The notes beneath the pieces are model-generated. The model had not been told where the DNA came from. It searched no databases and was given only the letters and a program-made list of their open reading frames with translations. The translations under genes and the position numbers were made by a program. A DNA stretch of 64,000 nucleotides from an uncultured Alphaproteobacteria bacterium (GTDB taxonomy: Bacteria > Pseudomonadota > Alphaproteobacteria > Rs-D84), in the NCBI GenBank assembly GCA_944389555.1, contig CALXMU010000002.1, forward strand, positions 30,271 through 94,270. Direction: 5' to 3'. This document shows, piece by piece, positions 1,648 to 25,755 of the stretch. Each line of letters starts with the position of its first letter. Position 1 is the stretch's first letter.

Positions 1648-2964
1648 ATGAAATTTTTGAGAGAATTTTTTGGAAATATGTCCGATTTGCAGAAGCGCAT
1701 TCTTTTTACTTTGGGGGCGCTGATTGTATATCGTATCGGTTCTTTTATTCCATTACCGGGGGTAAATGCTTCTGCTGTCTTGCATCTGTTTACAGGTGAA
1801 GGTAGCGGTATGATGGGAATGTTTGATATGTTTGCTGGCGGTTCTTTATCACGTATGTCCGTCTTAGCGTTAAACATTTTCCCGTATATCTCTGCTTCCA
1901 TCGTATTACAATTGTTGACGGCTACAAGTAAATCATTAAACGAACTTCGTAAAGAAGGCGAATCTGGGCGTATTAAAATTAACCAGTATACCAGGTATTT
2001 AGCGGTATTTTTGGCCGTGGTACAAGGGTGGGCTGTTGTGCGTGGTTTGGAATCAATGGCACCTGTTAATGGTGTGGCTGCTGTTGTAAACCCAGGTTTT
2101 TCTTTTGAATTGACCGCAATAATTGCTTTGGTTGGTGGAACTGTTTTTGTTATGTGGTTGGCAGAACAGATTACCGCACGTGGTATCGGGCAAGGCGCGT
2201 CTTTGCTTATCTTTGCCGGTATAATAGCGCAGGTTCCAAGTGGAGTGGCTCAATTGTTCTCTTTGGGGTCTGTGGGACAGATTTCTCCGGCTATGATTGC
2301 CCTAATCGTCGCTTTTGTTGTAGGTATCATCGCTTTAATCGCTTTCTTTGAACAGGCACAACGTCGTATTCAAATACTTTACCCTCGTCAAGTTATGGCG
2401 AATGGTGTTATGAATACGAACGCGTCTTATTTACCGATAAAAGTAAATATGTCTGGCGTTATGGGACCTGTTTTCGCGGCAAGTATTATGATGCTGCCCG
2501 CTTTTGTACAACGTTTCGTACAAAGTGAAAACCCAATAGTACAATCTGTAATGGGATTCTTTACGTATGGTACGTGGTCTTATATCATAACTTATACGAT
2601 ATTGATTGCGTTCTTTGCGTATTTCCAAACTGCCGTTATATTTAATTCTGAAGAAACTTCAACAAATCTTAAAAATGCTGGCGGTTATATTCCAGGCGTT
2701 CGCCCAGGTGAACAAACTATGCATTATTTAGATTCCGTCGTTTCTCGTACAACGGCAATAGGCGTTCTTTATCTAGTTGTCGTATGCGTGGTTCCTATCA
2801 TATTAAACTCTCATATGGGAATGCCTTTGACAATTGGTGGAACAAGTGTATTGATCGTTGCTGGTGTGGTTCTGGATACGATGAATCAGGTTCAGTCATA
2901 TTTGGTGGCGAAACAATATAAAAGTGTGATTAAAAAAGCACAGAAGAAGGGGCGTTTCCGTTAA
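1648..2964 (+). CDS. secY: Preprotein translocase subunit SecY
   Basis: LIVYRIGSFIPLPG, ALNIFPYISASI, GGYIPGVRPG motifs; multi-TM. Confidence 0.98.
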   Translation: MKFLREFFGNMSDLQKRILFTLGALIVYRIGSFIPLPGVNASAVLHLFTGEGSGMMGMFDMFAGGSLSRMSVLALNIFPYISASIVLQLLTATSKSLNELRKEGESGRIKINQYTRYLAVFLAVVQGWAVVRGLESMAPVNGVAAVVNPGFSFELTAIIALVGGTVFVMWLAEQITARGIGQGASLLIFAGIIAQVPSGVAQLFSLGSVGQISPAMIALIVAFVVGIIALIAFFEQAQRRIQILYPRQVMANGVMNTNASYLPIKVNMSGVMGPVFAASIMMLPAFVQRFVQSENPIVQSVMGFFTYGTWSYIITYTILIAFFAYFQTAVIFNSEETSTNLKNAGGYIPGVRPGEQTMHYLDSVVSRTTAIGVLYLVVVCVVPIILNSHMGMPLTIGGTSVLIVAGVVLDTMNQVQSYLVAKQYKSVIKKAQKKGRFR

Positions 2965-3004
2965 AAGGTATTCATTAAAATATCAACGTGAAACGAAACA
3001 AAAT

Positions 3005-3032
3005 TTGACTTTTGCGGCATTTTTTATAAAAT
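3005..3032 (+). promoter_or_regulatory. sigma70-like promoter for rpsM-rpsK
   Basis: TTGACT-N16-TAAAAT about 105 bp upstream of rpsM. Confidence 0.55.
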
Positions 3033-6414: not shown

Positions 6415-6570
6415 ATGGAATAGATAACAGAGTTTATATATTATCTGCGACCATTTTGGCGCAGTACTTTTTTATTTGTTGAATTGCCACGTGGTGCGAA
6501 ATTGCAAGTTTATAAATAGTAAAATCGACTTTGTGGTTGATTTAATCGTTGTGTATGATAACATACAAAC

Positions 6571-6769
6571 GTCAGTGGGTGTTCCATTGACGGGGTGTAG
6601 TAGCCCTTTGTAATTGTCAGAGATGACATAAAATATCGCCTCCACAATTTAGGTTGGAGGGTTGTGAATATCACGAATAAACAACACTATTATTACAATA
6701 GCTACTAACCTCCAACCACCTGAACTTTTTGGTGGTTTTTTCATTCGCAATGAAAAAAGGAGGTTTAGA
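6571..6769 (+). promoter_or_regulatory. Structured 5' leader / attenuator-like element, copy A
   Basis: Hairpin GTCAGTGG-GTGTT-CCATTGAC; GGTTGGAGG (6652-6660) complementary to CCTCCAACC (6709-6717); terminator AACCACC...GGTGGTT-TTTT; homologous to 25004-25212. Confidence 0.75.
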
Positions 6770-7192
6770 ATGAAAAAACATTTAATAATCGTCGGCATAA
6801 TTTGTGCGGCATCAATCCCACCAGCGTATGCAGTCACAAAATGCGTAAAACTAACGTCATCAACAACGTGTACAAGTTACTCTGGCGCGGTCGGTCAGTC
6901 AAATTGGTCAATGACCTGTGGCGGTATAGAAATTCAGGGTGTTGCATTTTGCAGTTCTCAAGATGGTGGTTCAAAGGGTACAATATCCGAAACTGTCACG
7001 ACCATTTCAACCAGTGACTATAACAAACATTGTTGGTGCAAAATGGTTTCACCCGCGGTTTCGTCGTGGGTGTTCAACAACTCGCGCCCGTCCGCCGGCT
7101 CTTGCGCGTACGCTTGCGCGGGCAGCTGTGCGTCCGCCGCTCGGGACTTTGCGTCTTTCCGGTCGGGGCTGTTTAGTGGACTATCTGACTAA
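6770..7192 (+). CDS. Small secreted Cys-rich protein with putative DGR-type variable C-terminus
   Basis: Signal peptide MKKHLIIVGIICAASIPPAYA; HCWCKMVSPAVSSW then CAxxCAxxCA; AGGAGG RBS. Confidence 0.85.
   Translation: MKKHLIIVGIICAASIPPAYAVTKCVKLTSSTTCTSYSGAVGQSNWSMTCGGIEIQGVAFCSSQDGGSKGTISETVTTISTSDYNKHCWCKMVSPAVSSWVFNNSRPSAGSCAYACAGSCASAARDFASFRSGLFSGLSD
7052..7174 (+). other. Putative DGR variable region (VR)
   Basis: Only 7 adenines in 123 nt, all at codon positions 1-2 of NNC codons and none at position 3; NNC/NNT codons alternate with TGY GCG codons. Confidence 0.6.
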
Positions 7193-7204: not shown

Positions 7205-7483
7205 ATGAAACGAATATTTATTTTAATTATGGCGATTGCGCCGATTGGCGCATTTGCCGCCGCACCGTCAACGTCGTGTCCCGCTGGATATGTTACCGTG
7301 GTGGAAGAATATATGGAAATCGCGAACAGCACGTGTCCCGCTGGATATACATCCGCCGGCGTGGCGGACAGTTGTCTGGCGTCGTCACCAGCCGGTTCGT
7401 GCATAATGTATGCGCCAACCGGGGTAACTTATACCGACAGCAGTGGTTCATATGAATTTACGTCCGCCTGTCCATTGGAATAA
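7205..7483 (+). CDS. Small secreted Cys-rich protein with duplicated CPAGY motif
   Basis: Signal peptide MKRIFILIMAIAPIGAFA; starts 12 bp after the 6770 gene; exact 16-bp repeat at 7276-7291 and 7333-7348. Confidence 0.8.
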   Translation: MKRIFILIMAIAPIGAFAAAPSTSCPAGYVTVVEEYMEIANSTCPAGYTSAGVADSCLASSPAGSCIMYAPTGVTYTDSSGSYEFTSACPLE

Positions 7484-20986: not shown

Positions 20987-21052
20987 AGAAAGTTTTTTCT
21001 AGACATATAATTTAGATGTATGTTAAAATAATTCGCATAGAGAGAATTGTTT

Positions 21053-24000
21053 ATGAAATACATCAGATTATTATTATTAGCATTATTTTTAATTCCCGCT
21101 GGTTCTTTTGCAGCAAGTTCTACTAATAATGAGTTTATGGTTGCTGCTCAATTATTGTCTGCGGCAAAAAATGCCGATATTCAGCAAGTTCAGATTCTGA
21201 TAAATAGTGGTGCAAATGTAAATTATGTTGATAGTACGGGTTTGTCTTTGGTTTGTACGGCATTGATGAATAATGATATTCGTGCTGCGCAAATTTTGCA
21301 GATGTATGGTGCAGATGCTTCTCAATGTGACAGGCAAATAAAGCAATATGAATCTAGAAATAAGCCCGAAAGTAGTGGGGGGCTGTTTAGCGGATTATCC
21401 TCCGCCCATACGATTTCTTTGGCGGCGGCGGGAGCCGCCGTTGTTGTAGGTGGGCTTTTTTTATTAACTGATTGGTTGGACCCTGGTAACGAAAATAGTG
21501 GTGGTTCATCAAGTGAAAATCGTCCTGGCGGTGATGGCGGTGGAAGCGGTGGTGATAGTGAAGTTATCGTTTCAGAGGCAATTCCTGTGGGACCCGCATA
21601 TTTTACTTCTAGCGGTGAAATTTCTTATTCAGAGGCTCAATATCAATCAAATCTAGCGCAATGGGACCCAAGTGCTGGTGGAGTACGAGAAGCAGATTTT
21701 AATTATTTTAGACCGACAGAACAACCGACGAATAATTATATTATAGATGGTATTGCCGTCCCATTACAAAATTATTTGTTGATTATGCATGGGTATTCTT
21801 CTTTCGCAAACGGTTATATGGGGCAGACGACGTTTCGCGATGCTTCACATAATCCAATTAAAGTCTTAAATGAAACAGGTGGGGGAAAACCTATTCTTAC
21901 TACGTTGATTACGGCAAATGGGATAAATCCAACTGGTTCTGCAGAACGTACAGTCGAAGGTATTACTTGGTCTGATTCAACGGCTGCTACATCAAATACG
22001 TATACGTCTGATAAATATGCTAATTATAATAATCCGTCTGGTAATAATTTGGGAAATGAAATAGCTGGTTTTGATTTATCTGGCAGCGGTACAGCAATGA
22101 ATCCTTTCGCAACGGCAACGGAAACTGCGCTGGCAAAGATTATAGGCGGGTGGGAAGCTGGTGGGCGTGCTTATGGCGATTTATACGGTTTTACTCCGAA
22201 TGGGCAGTTAGCAGTATATAGAACAGGCGGTGGCGGTAAATGGGTGGATGTAGAAAAACCGACCGAAGGTGCCGTTGTAGGGACTTTGACAGATTCTGGT
22301 ACTGCTGGGACAGCCGGTGTTATTAATACTGGGGATACGATAACGATAAACGGGGTGACATACACTATATCGTCTGCATTGGATGATGCAGGGGTTACCA
22401 ATCCTACAATTACAATAGGTGATACAACCTATAAACTTGGTGCAGGCAGCAATTTGTTAAAAGGTTCTTGTACAGGTGATAATTGCGAAGACGTTTCTGA
22501 TATAGCTATTTATCAAGGTACTGATGGTTATTATTATGTAAATACTTCTGGTGGCGATAAACCTGATGCGGTTTATGTTATAAATAATAATAATATATAT
22601 ACTCAAAAAGAATGGCAGGAATCTGACGTTAGAAATTATGAGGCGATATATAACGCTAGAACAAATGGTTCAAGCGTAATTGCAAACGCAACTTTAAATC
22701 CAGACTCTCGGCAAGTTTCATATACTAATATCGGTGAAATAGAGTCCTATTTTGCTTTGGGTGGGGATTCAAACAAGAAAATATTGTTTGGAAATTTGAT
22801 AAATAATTATTATGAAAAAGATTCTAGTGACGCAACAAGTCAGGGGGGATATGCTAACTCGATATTTAATGGATATAATAACACTTTGCCGATATTGGTA
22901 AACCCGGCCGGTGAGTTTGCTTGGGGGCAGGGTGAAGGTAAAACAATGAATGTTTTAGATGCAACGTTTGAAAACTATGCACCTGCTTTATACGATTCTA
23001 ATTTAGAACACATGTTTATGACTATCGTCGCTGTTCAGCATTCTAAAGGAACTTCTAATGCGGATAGTATTTCTGGATATGGAAATGGAACGGGCAGTGA
23101 TTATGGTCCTTTATATTTATCTATGTGGAAAGACAGCGAAGGTAATCAATATATGTCCAGAAAATGTGGTGTTGCGGGTTTAGGGATAAATGGTGTTGAT
23201 CCATGGTGTTTCTCAGCGGCAGGACCAACGGCAGAAATGGCAACGGCATCTGCAGCGGGGGCCGTGGCCGCATTAAAAGGCGCCTTTAATTATATGTCTA
23301 ATACAGATATATTCATATTGATGGCGTTGACGGCAGATGGTCCTTATTTGGGAACTGATAGCGCAGGAAATGCTTTCACTGTTGATAGTTTGGTTAGTTA
23401 TCTAAAGAATATGTATTCTTTGCCGCCTGATTATCATTCTGACCAACTGTTTGGGCAAGATTATCTTGATGCGTTTGCAGAAGTATACGGTTATGGTATG
23501 ATAAACTTAGAGCGTGCTATGAAGCCTGGTAATAAAATTTATTTCTATGACGGGAATACAATTGTTTCGGATAATGGTAATGCATATTGGCGCGCAGCAT
23601 CAAATACTATATTCCGTGCGTCGTCAGCGTTTAGTCCTTCTACTGCGAAAATTAGCGCACCTTTTTATGACATCGTAGAAAGTTTAGACGGTGAAATTTC
23701 TTTACCAAGAATTTGGAAAAATGAGTTTGCTTTGGGGGCTTCCAGCAGGCGCGGTTTATATATGGGTGATGTTCTTGGTGAATTTAAGACACGTAACGAT
23801 GCGACAGAGCGCGTGCAGTTTGGTAATTTTGGTTTTTCTATGTCTTTGTCTGAAAAACCGTATGCCGATAACTTAGACGGTTTGGATAATATGGAATTAG
23901 ATTATACGTATGGTAATTGGAATTTTGCAGCTAGTTATCAAAGGCATTTTACAGATGGGGCATCTAGGTTTGATGGTATGTCCAACCCGATTTTAGGTTT

Positions 24001-24760
24001 GACTTCAAATGCAGTTACATCTGACATTGTTTATAATATGGGGCGTTGGTCTTTTGGTGGTCGCGCTTATTCTGGTGCTATCACTGATGAAACGATGTTG
24101 GATAACGACCCGACATTGGCCTCTCAATATTTGCCGGCTCGTCTTGGTATGATGCAGGGTGCACAGTCCGACGTTAATTGGCAGGGCGAAAAAATTGGTT
24201 TTTCTGCATCTGTCGGGGCGGCGTATGAAACAGATACTTTATTGGGGGCTCAGACTGGTGGACTATTAGATATGGGTAACGGAGAAACAATGTACGTTGA
24301 TACTGAGTTCCGTTATAGCCCAACGGAAAACATTACAATGAAATTGCGTTCTACTTTTGCGCGCACAACAACAGATGCCGAAGGGCAGTTCATACTTGGT
24401 ATTTCTGATATTGATTCTAATGCTTTTGCGTTTGGTGTTGACGCCGGTAATTTTAGTTTCAGTGTGGCTCAGCCGTTAAGTGTAAGCGGAGGAAGTTTGC
24501 AATATCCGTATGCGGACTATGAAATTGTAGATTTGGGTGACGGAAAGTATGATATTTCTATAAGTAATATGCATATAGAAAACGTAGATTTACGACCAGA
24601 AAACAGAGAGGTTCGTTTTACCGGTAGTTATCGTCATAATTTCGGAGAATTCACAGATGGTGCAATTGGGTTTATATATCGTGTGAACCCGAATAATACA
24701 AATGAATTCGGTAATGAATCAATCTTTATGATGAAATTGAGCCATCGTTTGGGGATTTAA
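21053..24760 (+). CDS. Large secreted protein: ankyrin repeats, degenerate subtilase (S8)-like region and beta-rich outer-membrane-like C-terminus
   Basis: LINSGANVNYVDSTGLSLV...LQMYGAD (ankyrin); MATASAAGAVAALKGAFNYMS and VYGYGMINLERAMKP (S8-like); alternating aromatic/Gly C-terminal strands. Confidence 0.75.
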   Translation: MKYIRLLLLALFLIPAGSFAASSTNNEFMVAAQLLSAAKNADIQQVQILINSGANVNYVDSTGLSLVCTALMNNDIRAAQILQMYGADASQCDRQIKQYESRNKPESSGGLFSGLSSAHTISLAAAGAAVVVGGLFLLTDWLDPGNENSGGSSSENRPGGDGGGSGGDSEVIVSEAIPVGPAYFTSSGEISYSEAQYQSNLAQWDPSAGGVREADFNYFRPTEQPTNNYIIDGIAVPLQNYLLIMHGYSSFANGYMGQTTFRDASHNPIKVLNETGGGKPILTTLITANGINPTGSAERTVEGITWSDSTAATSNTYTSDKYANYNNPSGNNLGNEIAGFDLSGSGTAMNPFATATETALAKIIGGWEAGGRAYGDLYGFTPNGQLAVYRTGGGGKWVDVEKPTEGAVVGTLTDSGTAGTAGVINTGDTITINGVTYTISSALDDAGVTNPTITIGDTTYKLGAGSNLLKGSCTGDNCEDVSDIAIYQGTDGYYYVNTSGGDKPDAVYVINNNNIYTQKEWQESDVRNYEAIYNARTNGSSVIANATLNPDSRQVSYTNIGEIESYFALGGDSNKKILFGNLINNYYEKDSSDATSQGGYANSIFNGYNNTLPILVNPAGEFAWGQGEGKTMNVLDATFENYAPALYDSNLEHMFMTIVAVQHSKGTSNADSISGYGNGTGSDYGPLYLSMWKDSEGNQYMSRKCGVAGLGINGVDPWCFSAAGPTAEMATASAAGAVAALKGAFNYMSNTDIFILMALTADGPYLGTDSAGNAFTVDSLVSYLKNMYSLPPDYHSDQLFGQDYLDAFAEVYGYGMINLERAMKPGNKIYFYDGNTIVSDNGNAYWRAASNTIFRASSAFSPSTAKISAPFYDIVESLDGEISLPRIWKNEFALGASSRRGLYMGDVLGEFKTRNDATERVQFGNFGFSMSLSEKPYADNLDGLDNMELDYTYGNWNFAASYQRHFTDGASRFDGMSNPILGLTSNAVTSDIVYNMGRWSFGGRAYSGAITDETMLDNDPTLASQYLPARLGMMQGAQSDVNWQGEKIGFSASVGAAYETDTLLGAQTGGLLDMGNGETMYVDTEFRYSPTENITMKLRSTFARTTTDAEGQFILGISDIDSNAFAFGVDAGNFSFSVAQPLSVSGGSLQYPYADYEIVDLGDGKYDISISNMHIENVDLRPENREVRFTGSYRHNFGEFTDGAIGFIYRVNPNNTNEFGNESIFMMKLSHRLGI

Positions 24761-25003
24761 TAAAAGAAATTCGTCCGGCAAGTTGTCTCACAGAAAAAGT
24801 CTGTGGGACAATTTTGTCTTACGAAATGTTTGTTTACTTTATAATCTATCTTTTTAATCGTTATCATAATATTAACACATTTATTGTAAAACTTTAGTGA
24901 GCAATAATTGCAAGATTGATGGCAAATTTAATAAAAAAGTATCTATACCAAGGAAGTTTTTAAGGTCTTTACTAGATTTATTTTTTGTATTAAACTAAAA
25001 ATG

Positions 25004-25212
25004 TCTGGGGGTGTTCCCTGGATGAGGACTTGAAACCTCTCATAGAACGTGGGGCATATGCGTTAGTATGCCGAAGTAACTCCATCCAAATTGGTTGGAG
25101 GGTGGCGATATATTTGAATAAGCCCGCTATTTTCTATGATAGTTTCAAGCCTCCAACCGCCTTCAAAATTTGGCGGTTTTTTCATTCTTTCAAATCAAAA
25201 AGGAGGTTTTGA
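25004..25212 (+). promoter_or_regulatory. Structured 5' leader / attenuator-like element, copy B
   Basis: TCTGGGG-GTGTT-CCCTGGA hairpin; GGTTGGAGG (25093-25101) with CCTCCAACC (25150-25158); terminator AACCGCC...GGCGGTT-TTTT; TTTACT-N17-TAAACT promoter at 24968-24996. Confidence 0.75.
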
Positions 25213-25755
25213 ATGAAAAAACTTATATTTGGGTTTGCTATCGTATGTTTGTATAGTTCGGTCGCTTATGCGGCACAGGATTGTTGCGCAAAATGTGGAG
25301 CAATTCCACATAGTGCATCTTGTAAAAACTCCGATATTTGTAATTGTGAAGACATTGTTACAACTGATTATACTTATGGAATTGTTACAACGCAAAAAGG
25401 AGAACTTTTGGTAAATTGTAACACTATAGCTACCGCTTTTTGCATACACGGCATAGAAAGTTATTCTTGCGCAAGCGGCTTTTATGGGACCGCAAACAAT
25501 TCAACATCTGGATGTACTAAGTGTCCGAGTAACGCCACATGCCGTGGAGGGAACTTTTCTGTTTTTGTCTGTCTACAGGGGTATTATAAAAATGGGGATA
25601 CGTGTTCACGTTGTCCTGGTTTTGGTAGTACAAATGGTACAACAGCTGGTAACGGCGCAGATTCAATAACAGATTGCTATTTGCCGGCTGGGACAAGTGG
25701 AAGTGATGCAACGGGTTCTTTTACGTATACATCTGATTGTTATTATGTGCAATAA
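25213..25755 (+). CDS. Small secreted Cys-rich protein (TNFR/GCC-like Cys modules)
   Basis: Signal peptide; SCASGFYG...CTKCPSNATCRGG, CLQGYYKNGDTCSRCP, ADSITDCY; AGGAGG RBS. Confidence 0.85.
   Translation: MKKLIFGFAIVCLYSSVAYAAQDCCAKCGAIPHSASCKNSDICNCEDIVTTDYTYGIVTTQKGELLVNCNTIATAFCIHGIESYSCASGFYGTANNSTSGCTKCPSNATCRGGNFSVFVCLQGYYKNGDTCSRCPGFGSTNGTTAGNGADSITDCYLPAGTSGSDATGSFTYTSDCYYVQ

Follow-up and report, generated by a model that had tools for sequence, protein, structure and literature searches.

Two leader RNAs encoded in the 64,000-nucleotide (nt) stretch of DNA analysed here (hereafter, ‘the window’; GCA_944389555.1, contig CALXMU010000002.1, positions 30,271 to 94,270 of the forward strand) are members of a family of more than 120 folded leader RNAs that is probably undescribed and whose function, as we infer it, is most likely that of a riboswitch-like switch acting on both transcription and translation. 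Copies A (6571–6769) and B (25004–25212) are the only two in the window; all coordinates are window positions on the + strand. A covariance model built from relatives scores copy A at 87.2 bits and copy B at 79.9 bits, with the next match in the window at 17.9 bits. The exact 9-mer GGTTGGAGG and its complement CCTCCAACC, found in both leaders, are absent elsewhere in the 64 kb, a 25-nt block around the Shine–Dalgarno (SD) sequence occurs twice against zero expected from shuffles, and both leaders fold better than 200 of 200 shuffled sequences (z = −5.2 for A and −4.8 for B).

Beyond A and B, a pattern scan and the covariance model together reveal about 120 further copies. The pattern scan of genomes gave at least 119 loci, and the model gave 131 hits in the 789 kb searched, about 120 of them scoring at least 58 bits. 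Species-level genomes that carry the family number at least 35, all smaller than 1 Mb, and come from gut Alphaproteobacteria of the order Rs-D84, namely Candidatus Enterousia and its relatives; one genome holds at least 12 leaders. Lengths range from about 170 to 250 nt, and the elements are strand-specific, always oriented towards a gene. We distinguish two subfamilies, the window-type leaders, which resemble A and B, and the canonical leaders. As the copies are paralogues, their sequence changes are not all independent events. About ten pattern matches outside the lineage, in genomes labelled Clostridia, Oscillospiraceae, Acutalibacteraceae, Peptococcaceae, Bacteroidales, Anaerolineaceae and Dehalococcoidia, were rejected as chance rather than family members; six of them have the stretch CCAATAATCGTAGTG in common.

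Sequence and covariation establish the promoter block and all helices of the leader. Each leader has its own sigma-70 promoter, with −35 and −10 blocks conserved just 5′ of the first hairpin in the family alignment (cTTGcA, 17 nt, TATAAT). Aligned to this block, the putative copy A promoter (6531–6559) comprises a −35 TTGTGG at 6531–6536, a 17-nt spacer and a −10 TATGAT at 6554–6559, and the transcript is predicted to start a few nt 5′ of 6571; a simple promoter scan does not call it, the −35 matching consensus at only 3 of 6 positions. The putative copy B promoter (24968–24996; TTTACT, 17-nt spacer, TAAACT) is likewise inferred by alignment. We take a promoter-like site at 6744–6771 to be a chance match because its start would fall inside coding sequence. 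Hairpin P0 forms the 5′ end of the transcript, with an 8-bp stem in copy A (6571–6591) and a different stem in copy B (25004–25022) around an identical GUGUU loop. All 112 leaders compared have a P0 of at least 5 bp, built from 64 distinct 5′ stem sequences; 47 have a GUGUU loop and 12 a GUAUU loop. Pairing of this loop with the junction described below was rejected, as the complementary ACAC is absent from copy B.

P0 is followed by hairpin Pb, at 6592–6607 in copy A (GGGG...CCCU, with loop UAGUAG at 6598–6603) and at 25024–25039 in copy B (GAGG/CCUC, with CUUGAAAC at 25029–25036); its stem varies among GGGG/CCC, GAGG/CCUC and GGAG/CUCC. The middle domain that comes next is 11–85 nt long across the family (median 68 nt) and is short in 17 leaders, A and B included. 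In copy A, a short hairpin at 6615–6628 (UGUCA GAGA UGACA) replaces the long middle domain of canonical relatives, and copy B has a hairpin at 25053–25072 (GGCAUA...UAUGCC). Most canonical leaders carry an extra terminator-like hairpin, T1, upstream of the switch region; the window copies have none.

The core of the leader is a three-way junction. Its outer helix, P1, pairs the 9-mer GGTTGGAGG at 6652–6660 and 25093–25101 with CCTCCAACC at 6709–6717 and 25150–25158. In copy A, the P1 5′ strand (6652–6660, GGUUGGAGG) is an SD look-alike, and the P1 3′ strand, within an element at 6707–6717, is CCUCCAACC (6709–6717). The spacer between the P1 strands is exactly 48 nt in both copies, with GAATAA at spacer positions 15–20 and ATAG at 38–41, and resolves into two covarying hairpins, P2 and P3. 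Copy A P2 (6662–6684) has a UUGU/ACAA stem and a conserved 15-nt loop, GAAUAUCACGAAUAA, in which AAUAA is invariant in the seed alignment; across the family the stem covaries as UUGC/GCAA, UCGUU/AACGA, CGAUU/AAUCG, CUGUU/AACAG and GGC/GCC. Copy A P3 (6687–6701) is CUAUU/AAUAG. The copy B junction spans 25093–25158, with P1 at 25093–25101/25150–25158, P2 at 25104–25124 and P3 at 25127–25142.

Base pairing in this core is strongly supported by the family. P1 is paired in 97.5% of alignment cells, with compensatory changes at 7 of 10 pairs, and P3 in 96.8%, with compensatory changes at 6 of 6. For the three-way junction plus the short terminator, 96.7% of cells are paired and 19 of 22 pairs show compensatory changes, compared with 7.6 ± 1.5 for shuffles and no more than 10 for slid partners. 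Part of this count rests on an alignment fitted to the structure of the model itself; a structure-unaware MAFFT alignment gives 93.3% paired, with a covariation score of 0.182 versus 0.110. Sequence and covariation also show a pseudoknot between the Pb loop and joining segment J3/1. Its 3′ strand in copy A, CUACUA at 6702–6707, pairs with the Pb loop at 6598–6603; in copy B, GUUUCAAG at 25142–25149 is the counterpart of the 5′ strand at 25029–25036. All four variable positions are Watson–Crick in 109 of 112 leaders, which use 20 distinct, fully Watson–Crick sequence pairs (permuted mean 7.9, maximum 17). Minimum-free-energy folds instead draw a single long helix between GGGGUGU plus loop and J3/1 plus CCUCC, the outer part of which is unsupported. 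Given that the Pb 5′ strand (GGGG, GAGG or GGAG) changes in step with its local 3′ partner in Pb and that CCUCC is constant, we prefer the hairpin-loop pseudoknot.

The P1 5′ strand has two covarying partners, an upstream ‘anti-P1’ strand and the P1 3′ strand, and both pairings are shown by sequence and covariation. The anti-P1 strand of copy A, CCUCCA at 6639–6644 (CTCCA at 6640), can pair with UGGAGG at 6655–6660; that of copy B, CUCCA at 25080–25084, with UGGAG at 25096–25100. Across the family 92.5% of cells in this pairing are paired, with compensatory changes at 5 of 8 pairs, in a strand that the model treated as unpaired, and RNAalifold predicts the anti-P1 hairpin together with a full terminator from the structure-unaware alignment.

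That terminator, T2, overlaps P1. In copy A it lies at 6714–6741 (AACCACC, a 10-nt loop, GGUGGUU and U6), its first 4 nt within P1; in copy B it lies at 25155–25182 (AACCGCC...GGCGGUU, U6), with the same 4-nt overlap, and the GC stem with T6 is found at 6716–6741 and 25157–25182. Alignment columns 165–168 belong to both helices, the overlap being only these 4 nt, and T2 is paired in 97.8% of family cells. With a G+C-rich stem of 5–7 bp followed by U6, T2 meets the criterion for an intrinsic terminator; that it terminates is inferred. A simple terminator scan calls T2 in canonical relatives, where the stem begins at GACC, and misses it in the window only because a 10-nt loop is longer than the 8 nt that the scan allows.

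Downstream lies the SD/start block, at 6754–6778 in copy A (AAAAAGGAGGTTT(A/T)GAATGAAAAAA; SD GGAGG at 6759–6763, start codon ATG at 6770) and at 25197–25221 in copy B (SD GGAGG at 25202–25206, start codon ATG at 25213). AACCUCC at 6707–6713 of copy A is complementary to the SD region GGAGGUU at 6759–6765. The terminator tails are also exact complements of the start region: UUUUUUCAUUC at 6736–6746 matches GAAUGAAAAAA at 6768–6778 in copy A, and 25177–25187 matches 25211–25221 in copy B. Across the family, the SD flank covaries with the P1 3′ strand: of the 94 canonical leaders (P1 3′ strand CUCCUG), 54 have the flank CAGGAG, which none of the 10 window-type leaders and 2 of 128 other, background genes have.

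A first-pass annotation of the window had listed the 5′ hairpins, CTCCA, the paired 9-mers, the 48-nt spacer, the terminator and the SD block, all of which are present where it placed them. Its ‘further short hairpins’ hold as Pb and the variable middle hairpin; it did not recognize Pb as such and missed the pseudoknot with J3/1. The mutually exclusive pairings it proposed are those that covary, and the further copies and covariation by which it suggested the idea be checked were found, with about 120 copies and covariation in every helix. Its reading as a combined transcriptional and translational switch is supported, with termination, switching and any ligand still inferred.

We consider it likely that the leaders work as a two-state switch; no transcript, termination, probing or binding data are available, and termination, switching, the identity of the ON fold and the trigger are all inferred. 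In this model, every leader, driven by a sigma-70 promoter of its own, forms the 5′ untranslated region of the mRNA for a small, secreted Cys-rich protein and could adopt either of two mutually exclusive folds. The OFF fold would be favoured by the order of synthesis and slightly by energy. In it, the upstream CUCC(A/UGA) strand would form a hairpin with the P1 5′ strand, leaving the P1 3′ strand free, so that T2 can form in full and halt transcription; in any read-through transcript, this CCUCC strand would pair with the SD, and in the window copies the terminator tail would additionally pair with the start codon. In the ON fold, the two P1 strands would pair to close the P1/P2/P3 junction, which the pseudoknot between J3/1 and the Pb loop would lock; the terminator stem would lose 4 nt and the anti-SD strand would be hidden, permitting read-through and translation. 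The choice would be set by whatever stabilizes the pseudoknotted junction, and a likely contact site is the invariant P2 loop GAAUAU..GAAUAA with the 1-nt junctions.

Constrained folds of the two states are nearly isoenergetic, with E(OFF) − E(ON) = −1.75 ± 3.4 kcal/mol (n = 115), and the OFF fold contains the anti-SD:SD helix. In the ON fold, RNAfold pairs the released upstream CUCC strand with the SD, to which it is complementary, which leaves the translational activity of the ON fold unsettled. No trigger has been identified. A small-molecule or second-messenger ligand is possible, if less likely than not, and a dedicated protein or other factor is only slightly less so. T1, present in most canonical leaders, is not explained by the two-state model and would also fit factor-dependent antitermination.

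The regulated genes are alike in kind. An open reading frame (ORF) follows 122 of 127 leaders, usually 35–60 nt downstream, and encodes a small protein that almost always has a signal peptide and about 8–25 Cys. The 140-residue product of gene A (6770–7192) carries a signal peptide and 10 Cys, and a conserved 92-residue ORF lies just after the gene at 7205–7483; gene B (25213–25755) encodes a 180-residue protein with a signal peptide and 18 Cys, from a small, fast-evolving family for which 8 homologues were found. Pfam and NCBIfam contain no family for protein A, protein B or the 92-residue ORF. About 85 of 102 downstream proteins have no Pfam family, and the matches among the 102 are limited to scattered Ephrin_rec_like, trypsin, OmpA and PKD domains. 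The AlphaFold2 model of protein A (mean pLDDT 52) is too poor for a fold search. Neither the Pfam and NCBIfam searches nor the structure model of the regulated genes examined gives any clue to a ligand or a candidate for one.

The first-pass annotation had also claimed novelty, to be refuted by a match to a known Rfam family. Neither of the two copies nor any canonical relative scanned scores at or above the gathering cutoff of an Rfam 15 family, and a gathering-threshold scan of the whole window returns only three tRNAs. The claim thus stands, qualified by a sub-threshold resemblance of the junction core to sRNA-Xcc1 (RF02221), the sole Rfam similarity and one confined to the window-type subfamily. 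RF02221 matches copy B at 35.2 bits (E = 1.7e-4; threshold 53), aligning over 1–87, exactly the P1-to-P1 span, and four relatives at 37.5–43 bits, end to end over that span; it has no match at E ≤ 10 on copy A or on the canonical members tested. The two RNAs share a three-way junction in which a G+C-rich outer helix of 9–10 bp (GGyyGGrGG/CCyCCrrCC, followed by (A/G)CC and a U-rich stretch) closes two hairpins, and both are multi-copy, Xylella having 7 copies of sRNA-Xcc1, of which 5 are spaced by about 380 nt (PMC12189769). sRNA-Xcc1 was detected in Xanthomonas as an 88-nt RNA with its 5′ end mapped at the outer helix (PMC2996969), whereas the predicted leader transcript begins about 80–150 nt before that point and additionally contains P0, Pb, the pseudoknot and the anti-P1 strand. 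The promoter block precedes P0 and, in the window copies, lies about 80 nt from P1, which argues for a transcript longer than 88 nt, without transcript data to confirm it.

The settings of the two RNAs differ as well. sRNA-Xcc1 belongs to Xanthomonadaceae and mobile elements and is described as trans-acting, whereas the leaders lie on Rs-D84 chromosomes before different genes and are read here as cis-regulatory. sRNA-Xcc1 has itself been placed upstream of small genes: of symE in Xanthomonas integron cassettes, both in the same orientation and against the cassette promoter (bioRxiv 10.1101/2025.06.18.660453), and of an ORF6N-protein gene in APSE phages (bioRxiv 10.1101/2020.03.17.996009). Searches for genuine sRNA-Xcc1 sequences yielded no verified example within their scope. 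BLAST of the Rfam sRNA-Xcc1 consensus found nothing in E. coli genomes and one weak Kingella plasmid match (E = 10), a putative Xcc1-like element, which the leader covariance model scores at 4 bits. A pattern scan of viral contigs for sRNA-Xcc1 gave 29 matches, and none of the 13 scanned with Rfam reaches the RF02221 threshold; the symE loci of plasmids, enterobacterial or otherwise, have SymR or isrA rather than Xcc1.

The strongest rival to the switch is factor-dependent antitermination, processive or protein-mediated, in which P0, alone or with Pb, would load a protein that lets polymerase read through T1 and T2, and the CCUCC/GGAGG pairings would tune translation only. The position of P0 at the extreme 5′ end, its freely varying stem (64 versions) and kept pentaloop (GUGUU or GUAUU in 59 of 112), the tandem terminator-like hairpins T1 and T2 of canonical leaders, and the lack of ligand-related genes under leader control all speak for this view. 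We nevertheless regard it as unlikely: no candidate factor has been identified, no boxA-like element is seen and none of the processive antiterminator RNAs in Rfam matches; the whole switch is retained in the window copies even though T1 is missing there; and antitermination needs neither the covariation among anti-P1, P1 5′ and P1 3′ strands nor the P1/T2 overlap, yet both are conserved. Less probable still, and in our judgement very improbable, is an independent gene for a trans-acting small RNA, in which the terminated RNA of about 170–230 nt would be the product and its position before a gene incidental, or one half of a dual role. The unit does have its own promoter and a strong predicted terminator, resembles sRNA-Xcc1 below threshold and, like it in Xylella (PMC12189769), is multi-copy. 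Against this, the usual 35–60 nt before the ORF that follows 122 of 127 copies leaves too little room for a separate promoter, the SD flank of that gene covaries with the leader P1 3′ strand, and the variable pseudoknot strands pair within the same RNA rather than with a common target. A dual role of the leader is still not excluded.

Two further explanations can be all but discarded. In one, the leaders are a repeated DNA element, a duplicated promoter cassette or recombination substrate without folded-RNA function, alike through recent duplication or gene conversion. Many copies occur per genome, and identical leader–gene modules lie in differing upstream contexts, with breakpoints at or within the leader. 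But compensatory changes in every helix, including 20 pseudoknot sequence pairs and 64 P0 stems, imply selection on base pairing, and the strand specificity and constant orientation towards a gene do not fit a mere repeat; recombination between leader copies may possibly be a side effect. In the other, the leader is an attenuator of known type, that is, leader-peptide attenuation, a T-box or a described riboswitch class, as a terminator with competing upstream pairings and the AUG that opens Pb in 86 of the 112 leaders might suggest. ORFs from that AUG range from 3 to 72 codons with no conserved frame and no SD, and copy A lacks the AUG; with no conserved short ORF preceded by an SD, the leader-peptide attenuator was rejected. 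On copy A, copy B and a canonical leader, Rfam 15 gives no T-box match at E ≤ 10 and, sRNA-Xcc1 on copy B excepted, no match to riboswitch or leader families at that cutoff. The first-pass annotation had likewise recognized none of these known types.

Further parallels to the switch reading come from known riboswitches. The leader meets two of their criteria: its putative sensor domain is conserved and structured, with helices that covary and nucleotides that are invariant in the junction and loop, and its platform has terminator and SD pairings that exclude the sensor-domain helix P1. Platforms that combine a terminator with SD sequestration are known, and the multi-copy c-di-GMP-I/II and c-GAMP classes control surface and secreted proteins. 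Like these, the leader places a covarying, pseudoknotted, aptamer-like domain directly 5′ of an intrinsic terminator, its P1 competes with that terminator, one strand is complementary to the SD, and many copies per genome precede genes for extracellular proteins rather than one biosynthetic operon. Unlike the second-messenger riboswitches, it has no Rfam sequence or structure match and no known ligand, and it adds an anti-P1 strand and, in many members, a second, upstream terminator-like hairpin. In the ZTP (pfl) riboswitch, a linker of variable length lies between a 5′ hairpin and a 3′ domain, which a pseudoknot joins. The leader shares this two-part plan, with a very variable linker (11–85 nt) and a pseudoknot joining the parts, but differs in its conserved nucleotides, in having no Rfam match, in a downstream domain that is a three-way junction and in a gene context with no tie to purine or folate metabolism. 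Among the antitermination elements known from leader RNA are phage nut/boxB, put RNA and the hairpin required by LoaP. The leader resembles them in a 5′-proximal hairpin with a small conserved loop and freely varying stem and in the tandem terminators downstream in canonical members; it differs in showing no boxA and no identified partner protein, and most of its conserved structure is a switchable junction overlapping one terminator and the SD.

To our knowledge, no mechanism of gene regulation or partner interaction has been described in Rs-D84 bacteria. Their Cys-rich secreted proteins are the likeliest candidates for interaction or surface factors, and a single RNA device before at least a dozen such fast-evolving proteins per genome would define the main regulon of the lineage and offer an RNA handle for finding the signal that these bacteria sense. 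A bolder reading, which we offer only as a possibility, is that a signalling molecule, or a cue from a host or partner, binds the pseudoknotted junction, making the leaders a novel class of riboswitch, with sRNA-Xcc1 as a minimal form of the same sensor. If this were true, an uncultured, reduced-genome gut symbiont would devote one regulon of at least 12 genes in a genome below 1 Mb to hypervariable Cys-rich secreted proteins, and sRNA-Xcc1, treated as trans-acting and virulence-linked in Xanthomonas, Xylella and mobile elements, would regulate the small genes downstream of it in cis, so that what is widely annotated as an ‘sRNA’ would be a cis-regulatory element. Represented by over 120 examples, with a pseudoknot that covaries strongly and a dual platform, the leader is a well-supported orphan RNA, and its three-register CUCC/GGAG set is unusual. 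The leader contains three CUCC-type strands and three GGAG-type strands.

A leader RNA at 6571-6769 (copy A) and a second at 25004-25212 (copy B) carry the same elements in the same order, as the first-pass annotation had claimed. Both open with a 5' hairpin whose stem differs and whose GUGUU loop is identical (6571-6591 and 25004-25022, confirmed by a scripted check), followed by CTCCA, found at 6640 and 25080, and GGTTGGAGG (6652-6660 and 25093-25101). The claimed spacer of exactly 48 nt holds in both copies, with GAATAA at spacer positions 15-20 and ATAG at 38-41, and leads into CCTCCAACC (6709-6717 and 25150-25158), a terminator with a GC stem and T6 run (6716-6741 and 25157-25182) and the block AAAAAGGAGGTTT(A/T)GAATGAAAAAA (6754-6778 and 25197-25221). 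These shared elements are not due to chance: the exact 9-mer with its complement occurs nowhere else in the window, the Shine-Dalgarno (SD) block occurs twice against zero expected, and the folding of each copy beats 200 of 200 shuffles (z = -5.2 and -4.8). A scan of the window with R1, our covariance model of the leader core, returns only copies A and B, at 87.2 and 79.9 bits, the next match scoring 17.9. The proteins encoded downstream are 23% identical in a MAFFT alignment, with little in common beyond the signal peptide; what is conserved is therefore the leader and not a duplicated gene.

The same leader accompanies genes homologous to A and B in further assemblies, and one of these (L008) shows compensatory changes in P1, P2 and P3, the helices of a three-way junction. 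A pattern drawn from the conserved core and scanned over one genome per bacterial species gave at least 119 loci; about 110 of these 119 are true members. The first 80 loci come from at least 35 assemblies; copy number reaches at least 12 in one MAG and at least 6 in another. Run over 789 kb of fetched loci, R1 finds 131 matches, of which about 120 score 58 bits or higher, and several loci hold two or three copies inside 8 kb. The hosts are nearly all Ca. Enterousia, or MAGs labelled uncultured Alphaproteobacteria or Rickettsiales; Candidatus Enterousia belongs to the uncultured alphaproteobacterial order Rs-D84 of the animal gut, with genomes below 1 Mb (PMC12306168). Three member loci were binned as Bacteroides fragilis (L049, L082) or Muribaculaceae (L057), and for the two that are nearly identical to alphaproteobacterial copies mis-binning is the probable explanation. 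Six pattern matches labelled Oscillospiraceae, Clostridia, Bacteroidales and Acutalibacteraceae (L026, L038, L046, L051, L065 and L091) were rejected as members; all carry CCAATAATCGTAGTG between GGAGGG and GCCTCCAGACCGCC, apparently part of the conserved coding sequence of an enzyme gene, unrelated to the leaders.

The commonest ('canonical') form of P1 is GGUCAGGAGG / CCUCCUGACC, and the window form, GGUUGGAGG / CCUCCAACC, is a minority that we call window-type. Both occur together in single genomes (L033, L041, L061 and L102); only the minority form is present in the window's 64 kb. A divergent member at L061 2540-2740 (+), with P1 GGUUGGAG / CUCCAACC, a long P2 and an intact pseudoknot, was missed by the core pattern and by R1 at E <= 1e-3.

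Across the family, a sigma-70 promoter block (cTTGcA, 17 nt, TATAAT) ends approximately 7 nt 5' of the first hairpin, P0. P0 is present in 112/112 leaders with 64 different 5' stem sequences, its pentaloop being GUGUU in 47 and GUAUU in 12. It is followed by a short hairpin, Pb, with stem versions GGGG/CCC, GAGG/CCUC and GGAG/CUCC. An AUG stands at the first position of Pb in 86/112 leaders, including copy B (25023-25025) and excluding copy A; its conservation may be structural. The middle domain beyond spans 11-85 nt and is only a short hairpin in copies A and B; a TTTT run lies inside it in 87/112 leaders, usually after a GC-rich hairpin. A terminator scan called this second, upstream terminator-like hairpin, T1, in both canonical relatives checked (L016 3382-3399; L053 6166-6180, minus strand). 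T1 lies upstream of the switch and is absent from both window copies. Next come an A-rich linker and the anti-P1 strand, ACUCCUGA in the family and CCUCCA or CUCCA in the window, and then the junction of P1, P2 and P3, in which J1/2 and J2/3 are 1 nt each and P2 bears a conserved 15-nt loop, GAAUAUAUUGAAUAA. In the joining strand J3/1, AA or AG comes after a variable stretch. The terminator T2, (G)ACCACC...GGUGGU(U) plus a U run, takes as its first 4 nt the last 4 nt of P1, and the SD and start codon lie approximately 20-30 nt beyond it.

Covariation supports the junction. On the model-derived alignment of 131 sequences, P1, P2, P3 and a short T2 are paired in 96.7% of cells, with compensatory changes in 19 of 22 pairs; shuffles give 7.6 +/- 1.5 pairs (0/500 reach the observed value) and slid partners at most 10. 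The same structure imposed on a MAFFT-only seed is paired in 93.3% of cells and has a covariation score of 0.182, compared with 0.110 when shuffled and at most 0.075 when slid. In 109/112 leaders the Pb loop and J3/1 match each other by Watson-Crick pairing at all four of their variable nucleotides (partners permuted: mean 7.9, maximum 17), through 20 fully Watson-Crick sequence pairs such as GAGA/UCUC, AACG/CGUU and GACU/AGUC. The variable pairs in the window are AGUA/UACU and UGAA/UUCA, within helices that join UAGUAG (6598-6603) to CUACUA (6702-6707) in copy A and CUUGAAAC (25029-25036) to GUUUCAAG (25142-25149) in copy B. RNAfold draws copies A and B with a single long helix instead. Because the Pb 5' strand varies jointly with its local 3' strand while the distal CCUCC is invariant, we rejected that drawing and read the element as a hairpin-loop pseudoknot.

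The P1 5' strand also has a competing partner. The anti-P1 strand is unpaired in R1, so the alignment there was not fitted to any pairing, and a hairpin between it and the P1 5' strand is nevertheless paired in 92.5% of cells, with compensatory changes in 5/8 pairs (UA to AU in 16 sequences, GC to AU in 8 and AU to CG in 9). As the pairing with the P1 3' strand likewise covaries, the P1 5' strand has two covarying partners. RNAalifold, given a structure-unaware alignment, predicts the anti-P1 hairpin, P3 and the full 7-bp terminator. At the other end of P1, the 3' GACC (AACC in the window) is shared by P1 and T2 and is at least 95% paired in each. When the two folds are enforced, the OFF fold (anti-P1 hairpin plus T2) and the ON fold (P1-closed pseudoknotted junction) are close in energy, E(OFF) - E(ON) being -1.75 +/- 3.4 kcal/mol (n = 115), and the enforced OFF fold pairs the P1 3' strand with the SD around the terminator hairpin.

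The flank of the SD provides independent support for this last pairing. Leaders with CUCCUG as the P1 3' strand have the SD context CAGGAG in 54/94 cases and CAGGGG in 7 more; among window-type leaders CAGGAG is found in 0/10, AAGGAG in 7/10 and UUGGGG, which fits CCUCCAA, in 2/10. Other genes of the same loci have CAGGAG in 2/128 cases. The SD pairing proposed by the first-pass annotation held closely: in copy A, AACCUCC (6707-6713) complements GGAGGUU (6759-6765), near what had been claimed. In addition, both window copies have a terminator tail, UUUUUUCAUUC, that complements GAAUGAAAAAA at the start codon exactly (TTTTTTCATTC at 6736-6746 with GAATGAAAAAA at 6768-6778; 25177-25187 with 25211-25221). 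In 44% of family leaders such a helix could reach 8 bp or more, versus 11% with shuffled tails, and it may constitute a third layer of control that masks the start codon.

The earlier reading of a cis-acting transcription and translation switch thus held computationally, and we consider a switch of the anti-P1/P1 kind likely, its function being inferred and not shown. In this model, the anti-P1 hairpin could form immediately on transcription; in the default state the P1 3' strand would be left free, T2 would form and transcription would stop. Transcripts that escape would have their SD paired with the same P1 3' strand and, in the window copies, their start codon additionally covered by the terminator tail. 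Stabilization of the pseudoknotted junction would let P1 form, taking 4 nt from T2 and hiding the anti-SD strand. One difficulty for the ON fold is the freed upstream CUCC strand, which might also be able to pair with the SD. A trigger would likely be recognized at the invariant P2 loop and the tight junctions. A small molecule is possible as the trigger, and a protein or other factor only slightly less so; none has been identified. Terminator/antiterminator control with SD sequestration is a familiar type of mechanism, and the closest functional analogy is with multi-copy second-messenger riboswitches that control surface proteins. The fold, regulon and trigger are likely new, in a family that appears undescribed, large and strongly covarying.

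An open reading frame follows the leader in 122/127 cases, usually 35-60 nt beyond T2. Nearly all the encoded proteins are 45-750 amino acids long (mostly 100-270) and carry a signal peptide at the N terminus, usually with 8-25 Cys; their sequences are highly diverse. Pfam offers no family for approximately 85 of 102; among the remainder, Ephrin_rec_like Cys repeats, trypsin, OmpA and PKD occur sporadically. Protein A (6770-7192, +; 140 aa, signal peptide, 10 Cys) has 365 homologues at E <= 0.001, of which at least 120 are 70-99% identical and one is named from Candidatus Enterousia intestinigallinarum. Its AlphaFold2 model (pLDDT 52) is too uncertain to use. Protein B (25213-25755, +; 180 aa, 18 Cys) belongs to a small, fast-evolving family. 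A conserved 92-aa ORF (7205-7483, +) begins 12 nt 3' of gene A in all six related loci, making a two-gene operon under the leader probable. Pfam and NCBIfam hold no family for protein A, protein B or this ORF. Upstream of copy B lies a 1237-aa ORF with a weak ankyrin-repeat match (21047-24760, +), an arrangement kept in L007 and L008; proteins with ankyrin repeats are typical of bacteria living in association with a host.

Leader and gene A recur as an identical module behind three different genes, rplQ, LemA and a flavodoxin gene, depending on the assembly. Among homologues of window 6500-6790 (L001, L002, L003 and L006, each at 2731-3021), the identical stretch of L002 starts precisely with the first hairpin, and that of L003 and L006 starts within the leader; the latter two have a different P0, a short middle domain and an unchanged core. 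Recombination between leader copies clearly occurs, and it probably shuffles promoters and contexts.

Such recombination, with breakpoints at or inside the leader, is what could be said for mere repeated DNA, an explanation ruled out by the covariation and all but excluded. An independent trans-acting sRNA is very unlikely given the short fixed gap to the ORF, the covariation of the SD flank with the leader and the intramolecular pseudoknot. Factor-dependent antitermination through P0 and tandem terminators is compatible with the evidence and suits T1 of the canonical leaders, which the two-fold switch leaves unexplained; we consider it unlikely, and it could coexist with the switch. A leader peptide, T-box or known riboswitch is practically excluded. 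The ORFs opened by the Pb AUG run for 3-72 codons in no conserved frame, and a leader peptide was rejected on this ground. As to known RNAs, no Rfam 15 family is matched at threshold, so the earlier suggestion of novelty is not refuted, and the only repeated sub-threshold match is sRNA-Xcc1 (RF02221; threshold 53 bits).

sRNA-Xcc1 is an 88-nt RNA of Xanthomonas (PMC2996969) that is multi-copy in Xylella (PMC12189769). Integron cassettes carry it upstream of symE (bioRxiv 10.1101/2025.06.18.660453), and in APSE phages it precedes an ORF6N gene (bioRxiv 10.1101/2020.03.17.996009). Its model scores 35.2 bits on copy B, 38.6 on L007, 43 on each of L033 and L102, and 37.5 on the divergent L061 (2635-2716), so membership by score is not met. 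The matches span exactly P1 to P1 and are confined to the window-type subfamily. We found no described counterparts of P0, Pb, the pseudoknot, anti-P1, the platform, the host lineage or the regulon, and literature naming Enterousia or Rs-D84 included none on RNA, judged by titles and abstracts. Both RNAs have a GGyyGGrGG / CCyCCrrCC outer helix enclosing two inner hairpins, which, with the sub-threshold matches, makes distant common ancestry of the junction plausible and unproven. The divergent L061 member, whose P3 loop is of the CUUUG type, as in the Xcc1 consensus, could bridge the two families. A further Xcc1-consensus-like element, weakly supported (BLAST E = 10), lies on Kingella potus plasmid NZ_CP091517.1 (L163 556-632), on the same strand as a KilA-N domain gene located 45 nt downstream. 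Its outer helix is GGCGGG / CCCGCC and its hairpin loop CUUUGUA, and the 3' strand of that helix overlaps a downstream hairpin.
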